Assembly: GCA_965248445.1 (NCBI GenBank)
Contig: CBDFJG010000004.1
Location: 224,001 to 288,000 of the forward strand
Reading direction: 5' to 3'
DNA from: Planctomycetota bacterium
GTDB taxonomy: Bacteria; Planctomycetota; JAJSAM01; JAJVHW01
DNA length: 64,000 bases
Under the pieces are notes generated by a model. That model had not been told where the DNA came from. It was given only the letters and a program-made list of their open reading frames with translations, and ran no database searches. Of this stretch, positions 1,745-10,760 are shown one piece after another (the first letter of the stretch is position 1; every line of letters starts with the position of its first letter). A program made the position numbers and the translations under genes.

Positions 1745-2617
1745 TCAGAAGGGCAGGTCGAGCGGCACGCCGGTCGCGGCGTCCTTCGCCGCGAGGTACG
1801 CCTTCCCCGGCTCGCAGATCTCGCTGTAGTCGCACCAGCCACACAGCGGGTTGGGAGTCGCCTCGAACGCGTCGAAGCCCAGTTCGTCGTCCTTCTCCCA
1901 GTCCGCGAGAATGCGCTCACAGACCTCGAGCAGCTCGGCCTCCTTGCGTGCCAGCAGTTCGTCGTCCGGCGTGTAGCCGAGCTCGAGGTCGTCGTTCAGG
2001 TACAGGTAGCTGCAGCGCGCGACCTTGCCGCGGAACTTGCGCGAGACGAGGATCGCGTACGCGGCGAGCTGGAGATCCTTCGCCGCCACTTCGGCATCGT
2101 CCCTCGCACGCATCGGCTTGCCCGTCTTGTAGTCGAGGATCACCAGCGAGCCGTCCGGGTTGCGGTCGATCCGGTCGATCTTGCCCGCCAGCGTGACGCG
2201 GTCGCTCAGCCGCTGTTCGTGGAACTGCTCGGCCGTCAGCGGCACGACCGTCGTGTCCTGCGTCTGGAAGAAGCGATACAGGATGTTGAGGCCCTTCTGA
2301 CCCCACGCCTTCTCGTTGTCGCGATCGTCTCCGAACGCCTCCTCGCGCGAGCGCTTCTGCTTGAAGCTATTGCGCTTGAAGACACCGCGGCCGCCCCAGG
2401 CATCACGGAGCAGGTCGCACAGCTTCTCGTACGTGCGGTCTGCGATCGCAACGCGCCCCAGATCGAAGAACGCCTCCAGCGCGTCGTGCACGGCGTTGCC
2501 GAGAACCAGAGGCGGGCTCGCCTTGAAGTACTTTCGCTTCAGTTCCTGGTCGCGCCCGTAGCGGTACTTCCGGGGACAGTTGAGGTATGCCTCGATCTGC
2601 GTCGGATAGATCTTCAT
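1745..2617 (-). CDS. PD-(D/E)XK RecB-family / Cas4-like exonuclease with probable 4Fe-4S cluster
   Basis: N-terminal CPRKY, GKIDRID, LDYKTG, QLAAY, C-terminal CGWC..C. Confidence 0.85.
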   Translation of the reverse strand: MKIYPTQIEAYLNCPRKYRYGRDQELKRKYFKASPPLVLGNAVHDALEAFFDLGRVAIADRTYEKLCDLLRDAWGGRGVFKRNSFKQKRSREEAFGDDRDNEKAWGQKGLNILYRFFQTQDTTVVPLTAEQFHEQRLSDRVTLAGKIDRIDRNPDGSLVILDYKTGKPMRARDDAEVAAKDLQLAAYAILVSRKFRGKVARCSYLYLNDDLELGYTPDDELLARKEAELLEVCERILADWEKDDELGFDAFEATPNPLCGWCDYSEICEPGKAYLAAKDAATGVPLDLPF

Positions 2618-2641
2618 CGGCGTCCGATCGTAGCGCGTCGG

Positions 2642-2902
2642 CTAGGCGTATGTATCGGCTGCTTCCGCAGCCTCGGCCCGCTTCACGGCGCGGGAGACGA
2701 AGAACACCAACACTCCGCTCAGCGACAGGATCGAGACCATCATGAAGATGATCGACCACTGGAAGCCCGTCGCGGGATCCGCGCCCCCGGCGTCACTGTT
2801 CGCGGCGACCGCCGCGTTGCAGTTTGGTCACGCGAACGCCGTCGCTGCGAGCGCCATCACCAGCGCAACGGCGAGCGGACCAGCAGGCATTGAGCGGCGC
2901 AT
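2642..2902 (-). CDS. Candidate selenoprotein: exported, membrane-anchored 86-aa UxxC protein
   Basis: MRRSMPAGPLAVALVMALAATAFA-(TGA at 2830-2828)-PNCNAAVAANSDAGGADPATGFQWSIIFMMVSILSLSGVLVFFVSRAVKRAEAAEAADTYA-TAG; SECIS-like hairpin follows the TGA. Confidence 0.72.
2795..2823 (-). promoter_or_regulatory. Bacterial SECIS-like hairpin
   Basis: mRNA UGA-CCAAACUGCAA-CGCGGC-GGUC-GCCGCG-AACAGU: perfect 6-bp upper stem starting 11 nt after UGA, GGUC loop, lower stem ACUG/CAGU. Confidence 0.68.
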
Positions 2903-2958
2903 GTCCAGACCCTAAGCCCCCGCGAGCCGGGCAGCCAGACGATCATGGCCCTCGTGCA

Positions 2959-3384
2959 TCACTCCAACCCGGGAGCGACGTGATACAGCATCGCGTAGAT
3001 CACGACGCCCGTGGCCGAGACGTACGCCCAGATCGGGAACGTGACCTTGGCCCAGCGGCGGTGCTGCGCGATGCGCTCCTTCCAGCCGAGGTACGCGGTG
3101 CGGAGTGCCAGGAACGGGACGATCGCGGCGAGCACCGTGTGCGTAGCCAGGATGACGAGGTAGATCCCCCGCCAGGGGGACACCTTGGGGAAGGTCTGCA
3201 GCTCGCCGGCCAGTGTGGCCCGCGTCACGTACGAGACCAGAAAGACGCTGGAGACGACCAACGCGCTCAGCATCATCCGCTTGTGCCCCGGGACGTCGCC
3301 GCGCTTCACCCGGGCGATCCCCACACAGAGCAGCACGAGCGCAGTGAGGTTCAGGGCGGCGTTGGCCGCCGCGTGCACGTGCAT
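2959..3384 (-). CDS. DUF420 family membrane protein (oxidase assembly associated)
   Basis: NAALNLTALVLL..G..RVKRG..HKRMM; YLVILATH; HRRWAKVTFPIW.YVSATGV. Confidence 0.88.
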   Translation of the reverse strand: MHVHAAANAALNLTALVLLCVGIARVKRGDVPGHKRMMLSALVVSSVFLVSYVTRATLAGELQTFPKVSPWRGIYLVILATHTVLAAIVPFLALRTAYLGWKERIAQHRRWAKVTFPIWAYVSATGVVIYAMLYHVAPGLE

Positions 3385-3392
3385 CGGCCGAG

Positions 3393-4055
3393 CTAGGAGC
3401 CTCGCCCGGCAGAGCGCAGCGTGTCGAGGTCCTTCATCAGCTTGTCGAGCCAGCCGGGATCCTCGAGCGGTTCGTAGTGCGCCCGTCCGCGGCCCTCGTG
3501 GTCCAGCAGCACGAACGTGGACTTGTGCAGGATCACGTCTCCGCCGTCGCCGATCTTCAGCTGGTCGGTCGTGATCGCCTTGACATGCGCACGCGACATG
3601 CGGAGGAACAGCCACTTGTCCTTGTCCGCGCCGTACTCGTCTGCGTAGTTCGACAGCACGTCGGGAGTGTCGCGCTCGGGGTCCACGCTGAACGACGTCA
3701 GCACGACGTCCTCGGCGCCGTCCAGACGCGCCTGCAACTCCTGCATCGCCTTCGACATGCGCGGACAGGTCCCGCCGCAGCTCGTGAAGATGAAGTCGAC
3801 GACGGCGAACTTGCCGCGCAGGTCGCCGGTGCTGACGACGTCTCCGGAGCGCTCGACCGCGTCGTAGACCTCGAGCTGTCCGAGGGGCTGCGGCAACAGG
3901 CCCGTGTCGCCGCGACCCGGCTCGATCAAGGGGCCGTCGCCTTCCTCGAGCGTGATCACATTCGCGTGCTCGTCGGTCGGCGGACCGCTCTCCCGGCACG
4001 CGACGAACACGAACAGGGCTGCGCCGATCAACAGGACTGGAAGCACGTAGCGCAT
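3393..4055 (-). CDS. SCO1/SenC copper chaperone
   Basis: DFIFTSCGGTCP (CxxxC), SVDPERDTP, conserved His in ILHKS. Confidence 0.92.
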   Translation of the reverse strand: MRYVLPVLLIGAALFVFVACRESGPPTDEHANVITLEEGDGPLIEPGRGDTGLLPQPLGQLEVYDAVERSGDVVSTGDLRGKFAVVDFIFTSCGGTCPRMSKAMQELQARLDGAEDVVLTSFSVDPERDTPDVLSNYADEYGADKDKWLFLRMSRAHVKAITTDQLKIGDGGDVILHKSTFVLLDHEGRGRAHYEPLEDPGWLDKLMKDLDTLRSAGRGS

Positions 4056-4864
4056 CACTTGTGGTCTCCTCGGCTGCGCGCCCCGACGATCCAGAGCGCC
4101 ACCACGAACATGAGGATGGCCGTCCCGGCCGTCACGCCCATGGAAACGCCGAAGGCCGGCAGGTCATGCCCGGGAACTTCGCCTCCGTACAGCGCCTGGC
4201 GGAACGCGGCGACGCCGTAGGTGAGCGGGTTGGCCTGCATCACCCAGCGCAGCCAGATCGGCGCTCCTTCGAGCGGGAAGAACGCGCCCGAGAGCAGCCA
4301 GAGCGGGAACAGGAACAGCATCATCACGGCGTGGAAGCCCTGCGTGGACTCCATGCGCCACCCGACCACGAATCCCAGCGCGGCGAGCCCGAACCCGACG
4401 ACGATCAGGACACCGACACCGGCGAGGAACGAGCCTGCCGTGACGGGCACCCCGACGACGGGCGCCATCAGCAGGAACAGGACGCCCTGGATGATCGCCA
4501 GCGTCGCGCCTCCCCCGACCTTGCCCAGAACGATGCCTGCGCGAGACGCCGGTGAGACGAGGACTGACTGCAGGAAGCCCTCGTTGCGGTCCTGGATGAG
4601 CGAGAACGTCGAGAAGATCGCGGTGAACAGGAGGACCATCACGACGGTGCCCGGGAACAGGAACTCGAGGAAGCCCTGCTTGTCCTCGCCCCCGCCGATC
4701 GAGAACGCTCCCTGGAACCCGGCGCCGAACAGCAGCCAGAACACCATCGGCTGAACGATCGCAGACGTGAGGCGCTTGCGCTGGCGCACAAACCGCACGA
4801 GCTCGCGCTTCCAGAGGGTGAACGCCGGGAGCCCGAATCGGCCAGTGAAGTCTGTGCGGCTCAC
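4055..4864 (-). CDS. ABC-2 type transporter permease
   Basis: About six TM helices, LFPG, LSGAFFP, NPLTY motifs. Confidence 0.9.
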   Translation of the reverse strand: MSRTDFTGRFGLPAFTLWKRELVRFVRQRKRLTSAIVQPMVFWLLFGAGFQGAFSIGGGEDKQGFLEFLFPGTVVMVLLFTAIFSTFSLIQDRNEGFLQSVLVSPASRAGIVLGKVGGGATLAIIQGVLFLLMAPVVGVPVTAGSFLAGVGVLIVVGFGLAALGFVVGWRMESTQGFHAVMMLFLFPLWLLSGAFFPLEGAPIWLRWVMQANPLTYGVAAFRQALYGGEVPGHDLPAFGVSMGVTAGTAILMFVVALWIVGARSRGDHK

Positions 4865-5796
4865 TCGAACGCCTTCCCCGTCTTCTCCAGGAACACGTCT
4901 TCGAGGGTCGGCCGCCCGACGGTGACCGACGCCAGGTCGTCGCCGAACGCAGCGAGCAGACGCGCCACGAGAGCCGGTCCGGCGTCCTCGCGGACGTGCA
5001 ATCCGCCGCCGACCGAGGCCATCTGCACCCCTAGCTCGGCGCCGATTCGGGCGCGCACGGAGTCGAGTTCACCGGGGGCTGCGGGCACCGCGGTCACGAC
5101 GTCGCCCCCGAGCGCCGCGCGCAACTCGTGCGGCGTGCCGAGCGCGACGAGCTTTCCCGCGTCGAGGATCGCCACACGATCGCAGCGCTCCGCCTCCTCC
5201 ATCAGGTGCGTCGTGACGAGACACGCAACCCCGTCCTCGTCGCGCAATCGCGCGAGGTGGTCCCACACGTCGCGGCGGGCGGCGGGGTCGAGGCCGGTTG
5301 TCGGCTCGTCGAGCAGCAGCAGCCGCGGCCGGTGCAGCAGTCCCTTCGCGATCTCGACCCGGCGCTGCAGGCCTCCGGACAACTCGCGCACCAGGTCGCC
5401 GGAACGGTCGCTCAGGCCGAAGCGGGAGAGACCGGCGTCGATGCGGGCCGTGAGCTCGCGACCGCTCAGCCCATAGAGGTGACCCTGGTGAACCAGGTTC
5501 TCGCGCACCGTGAGGTGCACGTCGAGCGACGGCGATTGGAAGACGACGCCAATCCCCTCGCGCACGGCCGCGCTCTCGTCCGGAAGCGCGTGCCCGAGCA
5601 CTCGCGCCGCACCGGAGGTCGGCGGAAGGAGCGTCGAAACGACGCGGAACAGCGTCGTCTTGCCGCCGCCGTTCGGGCCGAGCAGGCCGAACAACTCGCC
5701 CGGCCGCAGTGAGAACGTGACGTCATCCAGAGCGCGTCGCTCGCCGTAGTGGCGCGACAGTCCAGCGAGGGCGAGCGGAGAGGTGCTCTCCGTCAT
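4861..5796 (-). CDS. ABC transporter ATP-binding protein
   Basis: GPNGGGKTT, LSGG, LLLDEPT, TTH; start MTESTS at 5796 overlaps the cyoE stop. Confidence 0.92.
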   Translation of the reverse strand: MTESTSPLALAGLSRHYGERRALDDVTFSLRPGELFGLLGPNGGGKTTLFRVVSTLLPPTSGAARVLGHALPDESAAVREGIGVVFQSPSLDVHLTVRENLVHQGHLYGLSGRELTARIDAGLSRFGLSDRSGDLVRELSGGLQRRVEIAKGLLHRPRLLLLDEPTTGLDPAARRDVWDHLARLRDEDGVACLVTTHLMEEAERCDRVAILDAGKLVALGTPHELRAALGGDVVTAVPAAPGELDSVRARIGAELGVQMASVGGGLHVREDAGPALVARLLAAFGDDLASVTVGRPTLEDVFLEKTGKAFE

Positions 5797-6689
5797 GCCG
5801 GTCCGAGCGCGGCGAACGCGAGCAGGACGACCGGGAGGTAGAGCAGCGACCCACGTAACAGCAGTCGTGCGCTGCGCTCCGAGGTGCGGAACGCGAAGAG
5901 CCCACCGCAGACTACGAGCCCCACGCCTGCCGCGAGCGCCACGATGAAGTAGTCCTGCCCTGCCAGCCCGAGCGGAACCGCAGCGAGCGAGACTGCCACG
6001 GTGAGGAGCCCCTGCACGACCACCTGTCGGGCAGTGGCGCCGCTGCCGCCGGTCACGACGGGCAGCATCGCGTACCCCGCACGCGCGTAGTCGTCGCGAT
6101 AGAGCCATGCGATCGCGAGAAAGTGCGGCAGCTGCCAGGCCGCGACCAGCGCGAACAGGAACCAGGCTCGCGTACCGAGATGTCCCGTCGCCGCGGCGGC
6201 ACCGAGGAGTGGCGGCAGCGCGCCCGGGATGGCGCCGACCAGCGTGTTCAACGAGGTGCGCGTCTTGAGCGGCGTGTAGATGCCGAGGTACGTCCCGACC
6301 GTGAGCGCGCCCAGGGCGAACGCCAGCGGCGTCGTCCAGAGAAGCAGCACACCGAGACCGAGGACGATCAGCGCCAGCCCGAACACGTACGCCTCGGCGG
6401 GCGTGACGCGGCCTGCGGGCAGCGGTCGATCGCGGGTCCGCACCATGCGGGCGTCGAGGTCCCGTTCCATCCACTGGTTCAGCGCGCTCGCGCCGAAAGC
6501 GAGTAGACCCGCTCCGGCGATTGCGGCGGCGAATCGCGATGCTGGTGCGAACGTCCCGGCGGCAACCCACCAGCCTGCGGCGACTGCGAGCACCGCCATC
6601 GCGTTCAGGCGTGGCTTCGTCAGCGCAACGAACGCACCGAGCCGTGCGGCTGCTCCGATCGGAGCTACGGTCGCGTCCGTGACGCTCAC
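5793..6689 (-). CDS. ctaB: Protoheme IX farnesyltransferase (heme o synthase)
   Basis: LTKPR, NQWMERDLDARMVRTRDRPLPAG, YTPLK, WQLPHF. Confidence 0.94.
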   Translation of the reverse strand: MSVTDATVAPIGAAARLGAFVALTKPRLNAMAVLAVAAGWWVAAGTFAPASRFAAAIAGAGLLAFGASALNQWMERDLDARMVRTRDRPLPAGRVTPAEAYVFGLALIVLGLGVLLLWTTPLAFALGALTVGTYLGIYTPLKTRTSLNTLVGAIPGALPPLLGAAAATGHLGTRAWFLFALVAAWQLPHFLAIAWLYRDDYARAGYAMLPVVTGGSGATARQVVVQGLLTVAVSLAAVPLGLAGQDYFIVALAAGVGLVVCGGLFAFRTSERSARLLLRGSLLYLPVVLLAFAALGPA

Positions 6690-7723
6690 GACACGGCCTC
6701 GAGTTCGCGGGATGAGTCCGCCGCAGCGCTCGCCTCGATGCGATCTCGCGCCTCCGCAACGCGCTCGTCCGTCGGCACGCCGTAGATGCGGAGTCCGCGG
6801 AACAGCAGCGTGACGCAGAGCGCGAGAATCGCCGCCCCGAGCACCAGGTGCAGATTGAGGGTCGCGATGGCACCGAGAGACGGCAGGTCCTGGTAACCGG
6901 CGGCGACGTGCTGCGCTCGTTCGGTCGCTACCAGGTACGAGGCGAGGCCGAGGCCGATCTGCGCGATGACGAGTACGCCAAGCCATACGGACGGACGGCG
7001 CAGTCTCGGGAGCTCACGGGGCACGTCGCCGGCGCCGGTCAACACCAGCTTCGCCAGCAAGATCACGACGAGCAGAGCGAACATGGAGTGCACTTCGCGC
7101 GCGAGGTAGCCGTGCCGCGCGGCGGCTCCGAGGACGAGCTGCACGAATACCACGACTCCAGCCAGCATGGCTCCGCGTACGACGGCCAGGCCCGTCGCGT
7201 CGAGCGGCCGGTCTTCGTCCGTACGCCAGCGCGGGGAGAGGAACGTCGCGAGGGCGACGAGAGTGCAGAGGAAGAGCTGCGCGAACACCGAGTGCAGGAG
7301 CGGCCACGGCGGTGCCAGCAAGAACAGGACGCCGAGGCCGCCGAACGCCGCCTGCAGGACGACGAGGCCGAGAGCGAACCAGGCCAGCTTCCGAACCCAG
7401 CTGCGCGGATCGCAGCGCTGCACCCAAATGGCGAGCACGAGTGTCAGCATGCCCATCACGCCCGCAATGTGCCGGTGCAGCACCTCCGCGCGCAGCGTGT
7501 CGATGCGATACAGCTCCCTCAGCTTGGCCCAGTCCGGCAGCAGCTCACCGTAGATCAGCGGCCAGTCCGGGACAGTGAGACCCGCGCGCTGCGTGCGCAC
7601 GTTCGCCCCCGCGAGCAGTAGGAGCACGCAGAACCCCACACACAGCGCCGCCCATCTGAACAACCGGCTCGGCCGTCCCACGTCAGGTGGTTCGACACGG
7701 GTGGCGGTGTTCTTTTCGTCCAT
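6686..7723 (-). CDS. ctaA: Heme a synthase (COX15/CtaA)
   Basis: AGLTVPDWP, EVLHRH, multiple TM helices with conserved His; adjacent to ctaB. Confidence 0.85.
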   Translation of the reverse strand: MDEKNTATRVEPPDVGRPSRLFRWAALCVGFCVLLLLAGANVRTQRAGLTVPDWPLIYGELLPDWAKLRELYRIDTLRAEVLHRHIAGVMGMLTLVLAIWVQRCDPRSWVRKLAWFALGLVVLQAAFGGLGVLFLLAPPWPLLHSVFAQLFLCTLVALATFLSPRWRTDEDRPLDATGLAVVRGAMLAGVVVFVQLVLGAAARHGYLAREVHSMFALLVVILLAKLVLTGAGDVPRELPRLRRPSVWLGVLVIAQIGLGLASYLVATERAQHVAAGYQDLPSLGAIATLNLHLVLGAAILALCVTLLFRGLRIYGVPTDERVAEARDRIEASAAADSSRELEAVS

Positions 7724-7766: not shown

Positions 7767-9566
7767 CTATCCCGCGGGCGTGGAGGTGACCTCGCGCTCC
7801 GAGAGATCCAGGTCCTGCGGGAGCCAGTCTTCGTCCACCTCGGGTGAGGCGTACTCGTACGGCCCGCGATAGACGGTCGGGATGACCGGTCCGAAGTTGC
7901 CGTGGATGCCCGGCGTCGGGGATGCCGTCCACTCGAGCGTGTTGGCGTTCCAGGGGTTCTGCTCTGCCTTCTTGCCCTTCCACATGCTCCAGAGCACGTT
8001 GAAGAGAAGGATCAGCTGCGTGAACCCGAGCAGGATCGCGGCGTGCGTCATGAGCCTGTTCATCGGCAGCATGCCGTCGATGTAGACGTACTTCTCGTAC
8101 GGGTTCTGCGTTCGGCGGTGCATGCCGCCCATGCCGACGACGTGCATCATGAAGAACGTCATGTTGAAGGCGATGAAGGACAGCCAGAAGTGGATGTACC
8201 CGAGCGTCCGGTTCATGTGGCGCCCGAACATCTTCGGGTACCAGTAGTAGATCCCGGCGAACGCGCCGAACAGGCTGCCGCCGAATAACACGTAGTGGAT
8301 GTGCGCGACGATGAAGTACGTGTCGTGGATGTGCACGTCCACGGGTGTCGCGGCCATGTAGATCCCTGATAACCCGCCGATCACGAACATGCTGACGAAC
8401 GCAATGGCGAAGCACATCGGCACCGTGAACCGAATTTGACCGCGCCACAATGTCGCCAGCCAGTTGAACACCTTGATGGCGCTCGGTAGCGCGATCATCA
8501 TCGTCGAGAGCATGAAGGTCATGCCGAGCATCGGGTTCATGCCGCTCTGGAACATGTGGTGACCCCACACGATGAACCCGAGTCCGGCGATGCCTGCGAT
8601 GGAGTAGACCATCGGGCGGTAACCGAAGATCGGCTTGCGCGCGAACGTCGCGATGACGTCCGACGCCATACCCATCGACGGCAGGATCATGATGTAGACG
8701 GCGGGGTGGCTGTAGAACCAGAACAGGTGCTGGTAGAGGATCGGGTTGCCACCGCCCGACGCGTAGTTGAACGGGTTGCCGCCGATCTCGAGGCCCTGCG
8801 AGAGGCCCGCCGGGATGAAGAAGCTGGAGCCCCAAACGCGGTCCAGCAGCAGCATGATCATCGCGGACGTCAGCACCGGCGTGGCGAACACCGACAGGAT
8901 GCTGGTGATGAAGATCGACCAGACCGTGAGCGGCATGCAGAAGAAGCGCATGCCCGGCGCGCGCATGGTCACGATCGTCGTGATGTAGTTGGTCGCGCCC
9001 ATGATCGAGCCGGAGCCGACCAGGATGACGCCCACGCACCAGAGTGATTGACCCTGACCGGCGAGATACGAGAGCGGTGGATAGCCCGTCCACCCAGAGG
9101 CGGGTGCCCCCGCCGCTCCCTCGATCACGAACGACATGCCGAAGCAGACGAACGCAGGCCACATGACCCAGTACGAGACCATGTTCAGAAGCGGGAAGGC
9201 CATGTCGCGCGCACCGATCATCAGCGGCACGCAGAAGTTCCCGAACGCGCCGACGAGCATCGGAATGATGACCAGGAAGATCATCACCGAGGCGTGCATC
9301 GTGAACGCCATGTTGTAGATGTCGCCGCTGGCGACGTTCTCGCCCTCGCCGTACATCGCTTCGAGGATCGACCCGAGCACCGGGACCTCGGTGTTCGGGT
9401 ACGCCAGCTGCCAGCGGACGATCAGCGCCAGCGCCCCGCCGACGAACATCCAGAGCAGCGTCGTGATGAGGAACTGCTTGCCGATCATCTTGTGGTCCAT
9501 CGAGAAGACGTATTTCCCGAGGAACCCCGGCTCGTGGTGGTGATCGTGGCCGTGCTCGTCGCCCAT
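7767..9566 (-). CDS. ctaD: Cytochrome c oxidase subunit I, A2-type
   Basis: DHKMIG, TMHAS, WFYSHPAVY (YS motif), VWGHHM, VAHIHY. Confidence 0.97.
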   Translation of the reverse strand: MGDEHGHDHHHEPGFLGKYVFSMDHKMIGKQFLITTLLWMFVGGALALIVRWQLAYPNTEVPVLGSILEAMYGEGENVASGDIYNMAFTMHASVMIFLVIIPMLVGAFGNFCVPLMIGARDMAFPLLNMVSYWVMWPAFVCFGMSFVIEGAAGAPASGWTGYPPLSYLAGQGQSLWCVGVILVGSGSIMGATNYITTIVTMRAPGMRFFCMPLTVWSIFITSILSVFATPVLTSAMIMLLLDRVWGSSFFIPAGLSQGLEIGGNPFNYASGGGNPILYQHLFWFYSHPAVYIMILPSMGMASDVIATFARKPIFGYRPMVYSIAGIAGLGFIVWGHHMFQSGMNPMLGMTFMLSTMMIALPSAIKVFNWLATLWRGQIRFTVPMCFAIAFVSMFVIGGLSGIYMAATPVDVHIHDTYFIVAHIHYVLFGGSLFGAFAGIYYWYPKMFGRHMNRTLGYIHFWLSFIAFNMTFFMMHVVGMGGMHRRTQNPYEKYVYIDGMLPMNRLMTHAAILLGFTQLILLFNVLWSMWKGKKAEQNPWNANTLEWTASPTPGIHGNFGPVIPTVYRGPYEYASPEVDEDWLPQDLDLSEREVTSTPAG

Positions 9567-9568
9567 GA

Positions 9569-10618
9569 TCAGAAGTCCTCCTCGTCGTCTTCCGACGGCG
9601 TGTCGGGTCCTAGGTCATCGGGTCCGAACGGTTTGCGTTGCCAGCGCGGCTTCTCGAGGGCGAGGTTCTCGCTCTGCCACTGCCAGCGCCACCAGATCTC
9701 GTACGAGACGCTTCCGTTCGGACCGATCTTCCCGTGCTCCGGCAACTTCACGGATGTCGGCTGACCGGCCATCCACGCCTCGTAATCGGCGTTCGACACG
9801 ACGTACAGCCGGGCCGACATGGCGGAGTGCGTGGCGCCACACAACTCGGCGCAGACGATGTCCCAGTAGTCGAGCTGCACGTCGTTGCTGTCGCGGTCCT
9901 TGACGGTCTTTCGATCGGCGGACAGCTTGTTGGAGCGGAACCACACGTTCGCCGGCCACCCCGGAACCGCGTCCTGCTTGAAGCGCAGGTTCGGCAGGAA
10001 GAAGCTGTGAAGCACGTCCATCGACCGTTCCTCGGCGAGGACCGGCCGGTCGATCGGGATGATCAGTGCACCCGTCGTTACGAGGTCGTCGTTCGCGGAG
10101 AACTTCCCCTCGGCATCCGCGACGGCGTACTCGCCGTCGGGACCGGGGTAGCGGAAGTTCCACTCGAACTGCTTCGCGAAGATCTGCACGGGAACGGCTT
10201 CGCCGTCCATCTCGCCCGGCCGGGCCGACTTCATGTCGAGCCAGAGTTCGGCCTGGTACACCGCGAGCAGCACGAGGATCAGCGACGGGACGATGGTCCA
10301 CACGATCTCGACCGCGTGGTTGCCGTGCGTGTGCTTCGCCTTCTGCCCCGCCTTCGCGCGGTACTTGAAGAGGAAGTAGACGAGGACAGCCTGGACGAGC
10401 ACGAACGTGACGCCCGTGATCCACGTGATCAGGTACGTCAGCCTGTCGATCTCCTCGGCCTGCTCCGAGGCAGGCTCAGGGAGCCAGCCCAGGACGTCGC
10501 CCGAGCAGCCTGCGAGGAGCGCGACGCTCGCGAGCGCCCCGAGGGCGCGCAGGCAGTTCTGTCCGCGCTTGGTGGTGCTCAACTCGTCCGCCTCCCGCCC
10601 CGGCTCTGCCAGGCTCAT
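9569..10618 (-). CDS. ctaC: Cytochrome c oxidase subunit II (CuA), probably lipidated
   Basis: LLAGC lipobox, EIVWT, QFEWNFRY, DVLHSF, CAELCGATHSAM; start uncertain. Confidence 0.93.
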   Translation of the reverse strand: MSLAEPGREADELSTTKRGQNCLRALGALASVALLAGCSGDVLGWLPEPASEQAEEIDRLTYLITWITGVTFVLVQAVLVYFLFKYRAKAGQKAKHTHGNHAVEIVWTIVPSLILVLLAVYQAELWLDMKSARPGEMDGEAVPVQIFAKQFEWNFRYPGPDGEYAVADAEGKFSANDDLVTTGALIIPIDRPVLAEERSMDVLHSFFLPNLRFKQDAVPGWPANVWFRSNKLSADRKTVKDRDSNDVQLDYWDIVCAELCGATHSAMSARLYVVSNADYEAWMAGQPTSVKLPEHGKIGPNGSVSYEIWWRWQWQSENLALEKPRWQRKPFGPDDLGPDTPSEDDEEDF

Positions 10619-10760
10619 CCGTTCCACGACGAGGCGGGATGTTAGCCCAAGCGGGGGCGTCTTCAGGACCGGGAAACGGCCCGATCCGGTGGTTCCCGAC
10701 CGGAGTCGCGCCGGCCCCCCGAAAGCGGGCCCGGAAGCGGCTCCGGCCTGCATCCGCCGA

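Follow-up and report, generated by a model that had tools for sequence, protein, structure and literature searches.

A candidate selenoprotein family with UxxC and CxxU motifs encoded beside cytochrome oxidase assembly genes in Planctomycetota

Introduction

The closest described counterpart of the RNA element reported here is the fdhF SECIS of E. coli and Salmonella. Its upper hairpin is short and G+C-rich, lies within the coding sequence and begins 11 nt after the UGA; PMC4489274 describes both the GGUC loop and a bulged U as important. On the protein side, the closest counterparts are the UxxC/CxxU selenoproteins (Trx, Grx, DsbA-like, TlpA-like and Prx-like), in which selenocysteine (Sec) replaces one Cys of a CxxC motif; they are exported, and their Cys homologues are abundant (PMC13188914). 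A further set of selenoproteins handles metals, among them a putative mercuric transport protein with C/SxxU, the SO_0444 Cu/Zn efflux protein with UxC, SaoC and MbdU (PMC13188914). In oxidase assembly, Sco generally needs a partner of the PCuAC or CtaK type; the function of CtaM/DUF420 and copper loading without PCuAC or CtaK are described as open questions (PMC9145763).

The locus studied here lies in a window of 64,000 nucleotides, the whole stretch of planctomycete DNA that was analysed. Like the fdhF SECIS, it has a UGA, a spacing of 11 nt and then, still within the coding sequence, a short, G+C-rich upper hairpin whose loop contains GGUC. The sequence-only reading of this DNA had drawn that comparison, and both the spacing and the importance of the loop agree with PMC4489274. 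Unlike the fdhF element as described there, the upper stem in the window forms a perfect helix of 6 bp, closed by a 4-nt loop, and lacks the bulged U; in the lower stem the register shifts between subgroups of the family, and there is no Rfam match. The protein resembles the UxxC/CxxU selenoproteins of PMC13188914 in that Sec would replace one Cys of a CxxC motif, in its predicted export and in its abundant Cys homologues. Unlike the catalogued members, it belongs to a small-protein family without a thioredoxin fold or known domain, the mature protein, about 60 residues long with one TM helix, is predicted to begin with the motif, and Sec occurs at position 1, 4 or both within one family. Like Sco, PCuAC, CtaK and TlpA (PMC9145763), the small protein would face the periplasm from a predicted membrane tether, carries soft ligands or thiols and is encoded with cox/cta genes. 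It is, however, much smaller, has no sequence or fold likeness to them, and its ligand set would be Se/S, perhaps plus N, unlike the His/Met set of PCuAC and CtaK. With the metal-handling selenoproteins of PMC13188914 it shares a proposed soft-metal Sec ligand and a membrane or exported location, but those are other families with roles in detoxification or transport, none of them linked to respiratory oxidase assembly.

The family is missing from the 119 selenoprotein families of the 2026 list (PMC13188914, Table 1), and we found no literature report of it; the BSepDB supplements could hold it under another name. Table S9 of PMC4807772 includes, for two planctomycetes, one unnamed 'hypothetical' candidate with a Rhodopirellula Cys homologue, which is possibly this family. 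The sequence-only reading knew of no described selenoprotein in oxidase assembly. We found none in the literature either, including the accessible parts of PMC9145763, PMC13326102 and PMC12013277, and 'seleno' occurs 0 times in the accessible text of the first of these, a review of CuA assembly. The small family is a new selenoprotein family of the known UxxC/CxxU kind, with an unusual architecture and in a new biological setting, and it is a large, undescribed protein family of Planctomycetota. It would add a selenoprotein family beyond the thioredoxin fold and link selenium to aerobic respiration.

Results and Discussion

The small gene occupies 2642..2902 on the minus strand and has 86 codons plus a TAG stop. 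It had been proposed as a frame that the ORF caller had missed, and it is indeed present in the sequence and absent from the table-11 ORF list of the window. The ATG at 2902-2900 begins the frame MRRSMPAGPLAVALVMALAATAFA-U-PNC..., the in-frame TGA lies at 2830-2828, and the TAG stop is at 2644-2642. The proposed layout was recovered in full: a signal peptide ending A-F-A, TGA-Pro-Asn-Cys, a polar linker, one TM helix, a basic tail and the TAG. The homologues share this layout. The signal peptide (2831..2902, minus strand) has 24 residues and a −3/−1 pattern of the signal peptidase I type, after which cleavage is predicted. The TGA (2828..2830, minus strand) is codon 25; we read it as selenocysteine, and the 112 distinct sequences of the family have either Cys or TGA in this column. 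The single TM helix, residues about 49–69 (2696..2758, minus strand), reads WSIIFMMVSILSLSGVLVFFV and is followed by the basic tail SRAVKR.

The TGA is no assembly slip. It shows 0 differences across four contig sets, which come from one sample, probably the source, and are not mutually independent; no RNA data set was among those listed with the sequence. The TGA of the family was seen again in 54 further genomes. A TGA in such a place might still be an ordinary stop, which would make the locus a pseudogene, two chance ORFs or a case of non-Sec read-through. Gene callers skip the small gene, as that alternative would have it, and a word-index protein search with the U→C protein as query scored 0 of 17 candidates. 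Close relatives carry TGA and escape gene calling.

The candidate SECIS element lies at 2795..2823 on the minus strand, and its assignment draws on the sequence, the minimum free energy (MFE) fold, covariation in the family and specificity for the TGA forms. After the UGA and 11 nt (2827-2817) come CGCGGC (2816-2811), GGUC (2810-2807) and GCCGCG (2806-2801), and the lower stem pairs ACUG (2823-2820) with CAGU (2798-2795). The hairpin and its lower stem are thus where the sequence-only reading had put them, and the MFE fold yields both stems. The codons CCA and AGT had been remarked on as uncommon, and they are (8.7% of Pro and 5.5% of Ser codons, respectively, in ORFs of at least 500 codons of this 68.7% GC genome); as for the hairpin, AGU contributes its U to the pairing of the lower stem, and CCA lies in no stem. 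The fold of a 66-nt stretch was no better than that of shuffled sequences (z=−0.07; the stretch is G+C-rich), which is what an ordinary stop would also give. As a single sequence the window hairpin proves nothing, and the comparative data carry the case. An Rfam search at E≤10 over 2500-3000 returned three chance snoRNA-like matches and no SECIS family. The hairpin of the genome's own selD is of a different type, without a GGUC loop, and a likeness to it was dropped as within-genome support.

For the comparison, a six-frame search with the U→C protein was made over 61 related genomes, 19 of which had matches; two weak hits proved spurious on in-frame reading. The aligned column of this first set, window included, holds TGA in 11 of 20 sequences and Cys in 9, in the motifs UPNC, UPSC and UPGC versus CPNC, CPMC and CAMC. 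A profile built from 19 sequences (alignment A1) and run over 401 genomes of the phylum listed 125 matches in 116 genomes. The DNA of 112 matches was analysed, the weakest 13 (E above 5.7e-8) standing outside all counts. A local hmmsearch over the matched loci and the family loci of a DNA pattern scan then gave 112 distinct sequences: 55 CxxC, 42 UxxC (two of which come solely from the TGA-biased pattern scan), 13 CxxU (L227, L229, L233, L234, L237, L238, L239, L241, L246, L249, L251, L252 and L256) and 2 UxxU (L255, UPSU; L248, UDSU). All 57 TGA-bearing sequences keep, in a single frame, a signal peptide before the TGA and a TM helix after it, a conservation that an ordinary stop would leave without reason. 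Cys and Sec forms occur in close relatives: G034 (Cys) and G068 (Sec) belong to the same genus, and in the window's own taxonomic family (f1) five genomes have the Sec form and two the Cys form. Judged from these pairs, the switches between Cys and Sec appear to be recent. The Cys family is large: a representative library yields 4547 clusters of it at E≤0.001, and 1346 at the stricter limit of E≤1e-10.

The hairpin covaries across the family. In the first 11 TGA genes, the 6-bp helix is paired in 66 of 66 cells, with compensatory changes in four of the six pairs; 0 of 500 shuffles reached the covariation score, and registers slid along the sequence pair in 36–79% of cells. Whole stems are exchanged among these genes (CGCGGC/GCCGCG, GGAGGC/GCCUCC and GGACGC/GCGUCC), and RNAalifold, unprompted, predicts the same helix. 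With all 42 UxxC genes, 90.5% of cells are paired and five of six pairs show compensatory changes, again with 0 of 500 shuffles matching the score and slid controls at 37–75%. The perfect 6-bp hairpin 11 nt past the UGA is present in 33 of the 42, and the GGUC loop in 36; in the nine genes whose register does not hold the canonical hairpin, weaker ones or ones of another kind are seen. None of the 55 CxxC genes has at least five pairs in the same register, and GGTC is found there in four.

In the CxxU genes a GGU-loop hairpin begins 8–20 nt after the second-position UGA. By a strict rule it is present in 8 of 13 CxxU genes versus 1 of 55 CxxC genes, and the stems of the other five are interrupted by one internal mismatch. 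The two UxxU forms have one hairpin within reach of both UGAs. In the CxxU genes the hairpin has thus moved downstream along with the UGA, and the register of the lower stem varies between subgroups. Being inside the coding sequence, the hairpin is translated (A-A-V-A or K-E-A-V-A), and changes in the stem go with changes in amino acids, as between A-A-V-A-A and K-E-A-V-A-S; the peptide has therefore adapted together with the RNA. Conservation of the loop could be partly due to the conserved Ala-Val, a tendency that the Cys forms keep too.

The source genome (four contigs, 92% complete) has selA (E 2e-127), selB with a winged-helix domain, selD and one tRNA-SeC with anticodon tca. The selD gene (L003, G000:C3:1080793-1081719) itself has an in-frame TGA at the usual active-site position, in G-G-G-U-A-C-K. 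Of the 401 genomes of the phylum, 298 have SelA; among the 55 that carry a Sec form it was found in 54, and the remaining one is 67% complete. The locus thus has the marks of a selenoprotein of the SelB/SECIS type: an in-frame UGA with conserved coding sequence on either side, a covarying stem–loop past the UGA with G in the apical loop, Cys homologues at the aligned position, and selA, selB, selD and tRNA-Sec in the genome.

Among the checks that the sequence-only reading had named for its proposal were whether relatives hold TGA or Cys in the aligned column, whether the hairpin is conserved among TGA-containing homologues, and whether the genome has the Sec machinery. The column does hold TGA or Cys, the hairpin shows compensatory changes and is confined to the TGA forms, and the machinery is complete. 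The selenoprotein reading as a whole is supported, having withstood each of the refuting conditions set for it. On this comparative evidence, the small unannotated gene very probably encodes selenocysteine. We consider an ordinary stop very improbable; it is already contradicted by the TGA in 57 distinct sequences between a conserved signal peptide and TM helix, by a hairpin that covaries, is missing in the Cys forms and shifts with the UGA, and by SelA in nearly all of the Sec-form genomes. Standard gene callers overlook every Sec form. The occurrence of UxxC, CxxU, UxxU and CxxC in one family, together with a SECIS that tracks the UGA, is a natural experiment on Cys/Sec exchange.

Counted from the predicted cleavage site, 74 of the 112 sequences have A at −3, and 81 have A or G at −1; in 37 of the 42 UxxC forms the Sec is immediately preceded by A/G, with a small residue at −3. 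Position −2 is F or Y in 43 sequences, Q in 9 and E in 5, and in 12 of the 13 CxxU forms a Q immediately precedes the Cys. A lipoprotein (signal peptidase II) was considered and rejected: the residue counts do not fit the lipobox L-[AS]-[GA]-C, which calls for a large hydrophobic side chain at −3 and a small uncharged one at −2, and A-x-A fits signal peptidase I. At +2, right behind the first motif position, 81 sequences have Pro, and at +5, 86 have K/R. The linker between the motif and the TM helix has 9–31 residues (median 19 in the 112 sequences), and at least two K/R follow within 12 residues of the TM helix in 97 of the 112.

Neither Pfam nor NCBIfam has a model that matches the small protein or the family; with 19 members, the best NCBIfam match had E=0.0038, to an unrelated small-subunit model. 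The protein matches neither the PCuAC (PF04314) nor the Cox11 (PF04442) profile. No thioredoxin-fold match was obtained in Pfam at E≤1, and the AF2 model of a Cys homologue has helices only: one for the signal peptide, a short one of low confidence that begins with the motif, and a long TM helix (pLDDT 75–89; mean over the model 74). In a protein atlas, a natural Cys homologue fell solely among 'hypothetical protein' clusters of Planctomycetota (score 0.89). The source names of family proteins likewise read 'hypothetical protein', apart from one 'oxidase subunit 2', which no profile match backs.

The order of genes in the window is cox2, cox1, ctaA, ABC ATPase, ABC-2 permease, SCO, DUF420/CtaM and the small gene, all on the minus strand. 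By Pfam we assigned cox2 (9569-10753), cox1 (7767-9566) and ctaA (6686-7723). The CtaA match spans residues 23–206 of the 345-residue ORF (profile positions 2–208 of 322); either the C-terminal half has diverged or the ORF has been misjudged. The ABC ATPase gene lies within 4861-6873, upstream of the ABC-2 permease gene (4055..4864), which stands between it and SCO. The listed ATPase ORF (670 aa) begins with about 360 unassigned residues that overlap other frames, and its true start is uncertain. The SCO1/SenC copper chaperone gene is at 3393..4058 (PF02630, E 2e-19); its CxxxC and His are invariant in 19 orthologues. Directly upstream of the small gene is DUF420/CtaM at 2959..3384 (PF04238, E 6e-38). 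In an alignment of 19 DUF420 loci (A6), three His and several Tyr in the TM helices are invariant and are possible metal or haem ligands.

The small gene had been proposed to end a cytochrome oxidase biogenesis operon. It is the last cox-related gene, but the string of genes continues on the same strand with a PD-(D/E)XK nuclease gene (1745-2617, minus strand), which starts 24 nt past the selenoprotein stop. This nuclease is probably functionally unrelated to the small selenoprotein, because the same neighbour was found in just 3 of 112 loci, all from close relatives.

The proposed association with SCO, DUF420 and cox genes was borne out across the family. Searching 112 loci by tblastn with the window proteins, we found SCO in 63, DUF420 in 66, both in 61, cox1 in 19 and the ABC-2 permease in 27, nearly all on the same strand as the small gene. 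At least one of SCO, DUF420, cox1, cox2 and ctaA flanks it in 85 of the 112 loci; the other 27 have no cox gene in the flanks by tblastn, and two of these have cox3 by Pfam. Pfam searches of 16 further loci gave the orders cox1-ctaB-small, cox3/cox4-adjacent and cox2-adjacent. In many Planctomycetota (L011, L020, L050, L051, L192, L238, L248 and others), SCO and DUF420/CtaM are fused in an ORF of about 340–360 residues, whose start is rough in the G+C-rich loci; these fusions argue that SCO and DUF420/CtaM act together. By its gene neighbourhoods the small family is genetically tied to Sco and CtaM, and it probably has a role in the biogenesis of the oxidase copper centres.

A role other than copper or thiol chemistry on Sco/CuA is also conceivable, with the selenoprotein acting as an accessory subunit or scaffold of the oxidase or CtaM, as a sensor or as a binder of another soft metal. 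About eight loci, mostly paralogues of the QCxMC/U subgroup, lie in unrelated surroundings, outside cox clusters, and at L239 the small gene has cytochrome bd subunit II as a neighbour, along with a gene for cation efflux. The TM helix is the best conserved stretch after the motif, and many recently described selenoproteins handle metals or metalloids (PMC13188914). Set against such a role are the linkage to both SCO and DUF420 in 61 of 112 loci and an alignment of 45 rows, Cys forms only (A7), in which the sole invariant residues are the C, P and C of the motif; invariance of the two Cys/Sec positions and the Pro points to the chemistry of the motif. We regard an accessory, sensory or other metal-binding role as quite unlikely.

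In the source genome (92% complete), PCuAC and Cox11 were not found. PCuAC is present in 13 of the 401 genomes of the phylum, and one of the 13 also has the small protein. Ten of these 13 belong to one taxonomic family (f15), which is without the small protein; the anti-correlation is real in the counts but, being confined to f15, is phylogenetically weak and no more than a hint.

From the sequence features we propose the following course of events. SelB and tRNA-Sec would insert Sec at codon 25, and signal peptidase I would cut after A-F-A, leaving Sec as residue 1. The mature protein, of about 62 residues, would then expose a short periplasmic tail (U-P-N-C plus about 20 residues), tethered to the membrane by the one TM helix with the basic C-terminus inside. 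The selenol/thiol pair may take up Cu(I), possibly helped by the free amino terminus and by a Met that is conserved where the helix ends on the outer side; in the Cys forms of A7, the S, I and M at this end are at least 90% conserved. While the aa3-type oxidase is being assembled, the small protein would exchange this Cu(I), in one direction or the other, with Sco and the CuA/CuB sites, and would stand in for the PCuAC or CtaK of other bacteria. Compared with Cys, Sec would be a softer, faster-exchanging and less over-oxidisable ligand.

We favour a Cu(I) relay because the usual Sco partner is missing from the phylum at large, no fold surrounds the motif, the predicted N-terminal position of the motif adds an amine ligand, and the conserved Met sits at the membrane surface. 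As the specific function of the small protein, the relay is plausible and is put forward tentatively; against it stands that UxxC/CxxU are typically redox rather than copper motifs.

The main rival is thiol reduction. The same selenoprotein with the same partners might use its Se/S pair as a redox couple, a tethered selenylsulfide/selenol-thiol shuttle. Much like TlpA in Bradyrhizobium, it would protect two sets of thiols, the CxxxC of Sco and the CuA cysteines of Cox2, from staying oxidised in the oxidising periplasm. UxxC and CxxU are classical redox motifs of selenoproteins (PMC13188914), and the reducing role of TlpA is described (PMC9145763). In the family, Sec is found at either or both positions of the pair, and the AF2 model places the motif, at low confidence, at the start of a short helix. 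The C-P-x-C motif also resembles those of the DsbA/Grx type. A redox couple would, however, have to work without a thioredoxin fold, which takes about 100 residues around the CxxC, in a periplasmic part of just 9–31 residues that has no Pfam match; the cluster has no CcdA or DsbD as an electron source, and the missing copper-donor role would stay unfilled. We consider thiol reduction unlikely. A complex prediction for DUF420, SCO and the mature Cys-form G034 protein gave a score of 0.00 in a run without controls.

In its fullest form, the Cu(I) relay would make the four residues of the N-terminus, freed by the predicted cleavage, a Se/S 'hook' that ferries Cu(I) to Sco, CtaM and the oxidase, with Sec and its SECIS repeatedly shifted during evolution. 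We regard this full picture as possible but on balance doubtful. If it is true, selenium takes a direct part in building the aerobic respiratory oxidase across a whole bacterial phylum, and Sec has moved repeatedly among the first, the second and both positions, dragging the hairpin along the coding sequence. The small family is a testable candidate partner of Sco and CtaM, and its 4547 representative clusters are almost wholly unannotated.

A −10-like TANNNT box, TAGGGT, lies at 2909..2914 on the minus strand, 6 nt before the ATG. With start codons picked by a simple rule, TANNNT occurs at −20..−5 in 35 of 104 family genes, most often at −12; a control window has it in 7 of 104. TAGGGT may be the small gene's own promoter and give a leaderless mRNA. 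A scan of the window gene for a consensus sigma-70 promoter and a terminator found none.

The DNA pattern used in the scan (UGA, CC, a later UGC and GCGGUCGC) also catches a protein of about 600 residues with the motif G-V-(A/G)-G-U-P-G-C-x-x-A-V-A, hosted by Acidobacteriota, Actinomycetota and Chloroflexota. Pfam assigns it to the UGSC family (PF24696), a known selenoprotein family; the loci are L058, L061, L067, L070, L075, L079, L086-L088, L100, L103-L105, L109-L111, L117, L120, L123, L125 and L126. The SECIS of the UGSC genes and the A-A-V-A that it encodes look convergent with those of the small family. A third class (L084, L092, L097 and L121) comprises longer proteins, about 900 residues, in which FG-GAP and ASPIC/UnbV domains are combined. 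Their N-terminal motif is ELFS-x-x-G-U-P-Y-C, the same GGUC hairpin comes after it, and they match the 'ASPIC UnbV / FG-GAP' candidates listed for planctomycetes in Table S9 of PMC4807772.
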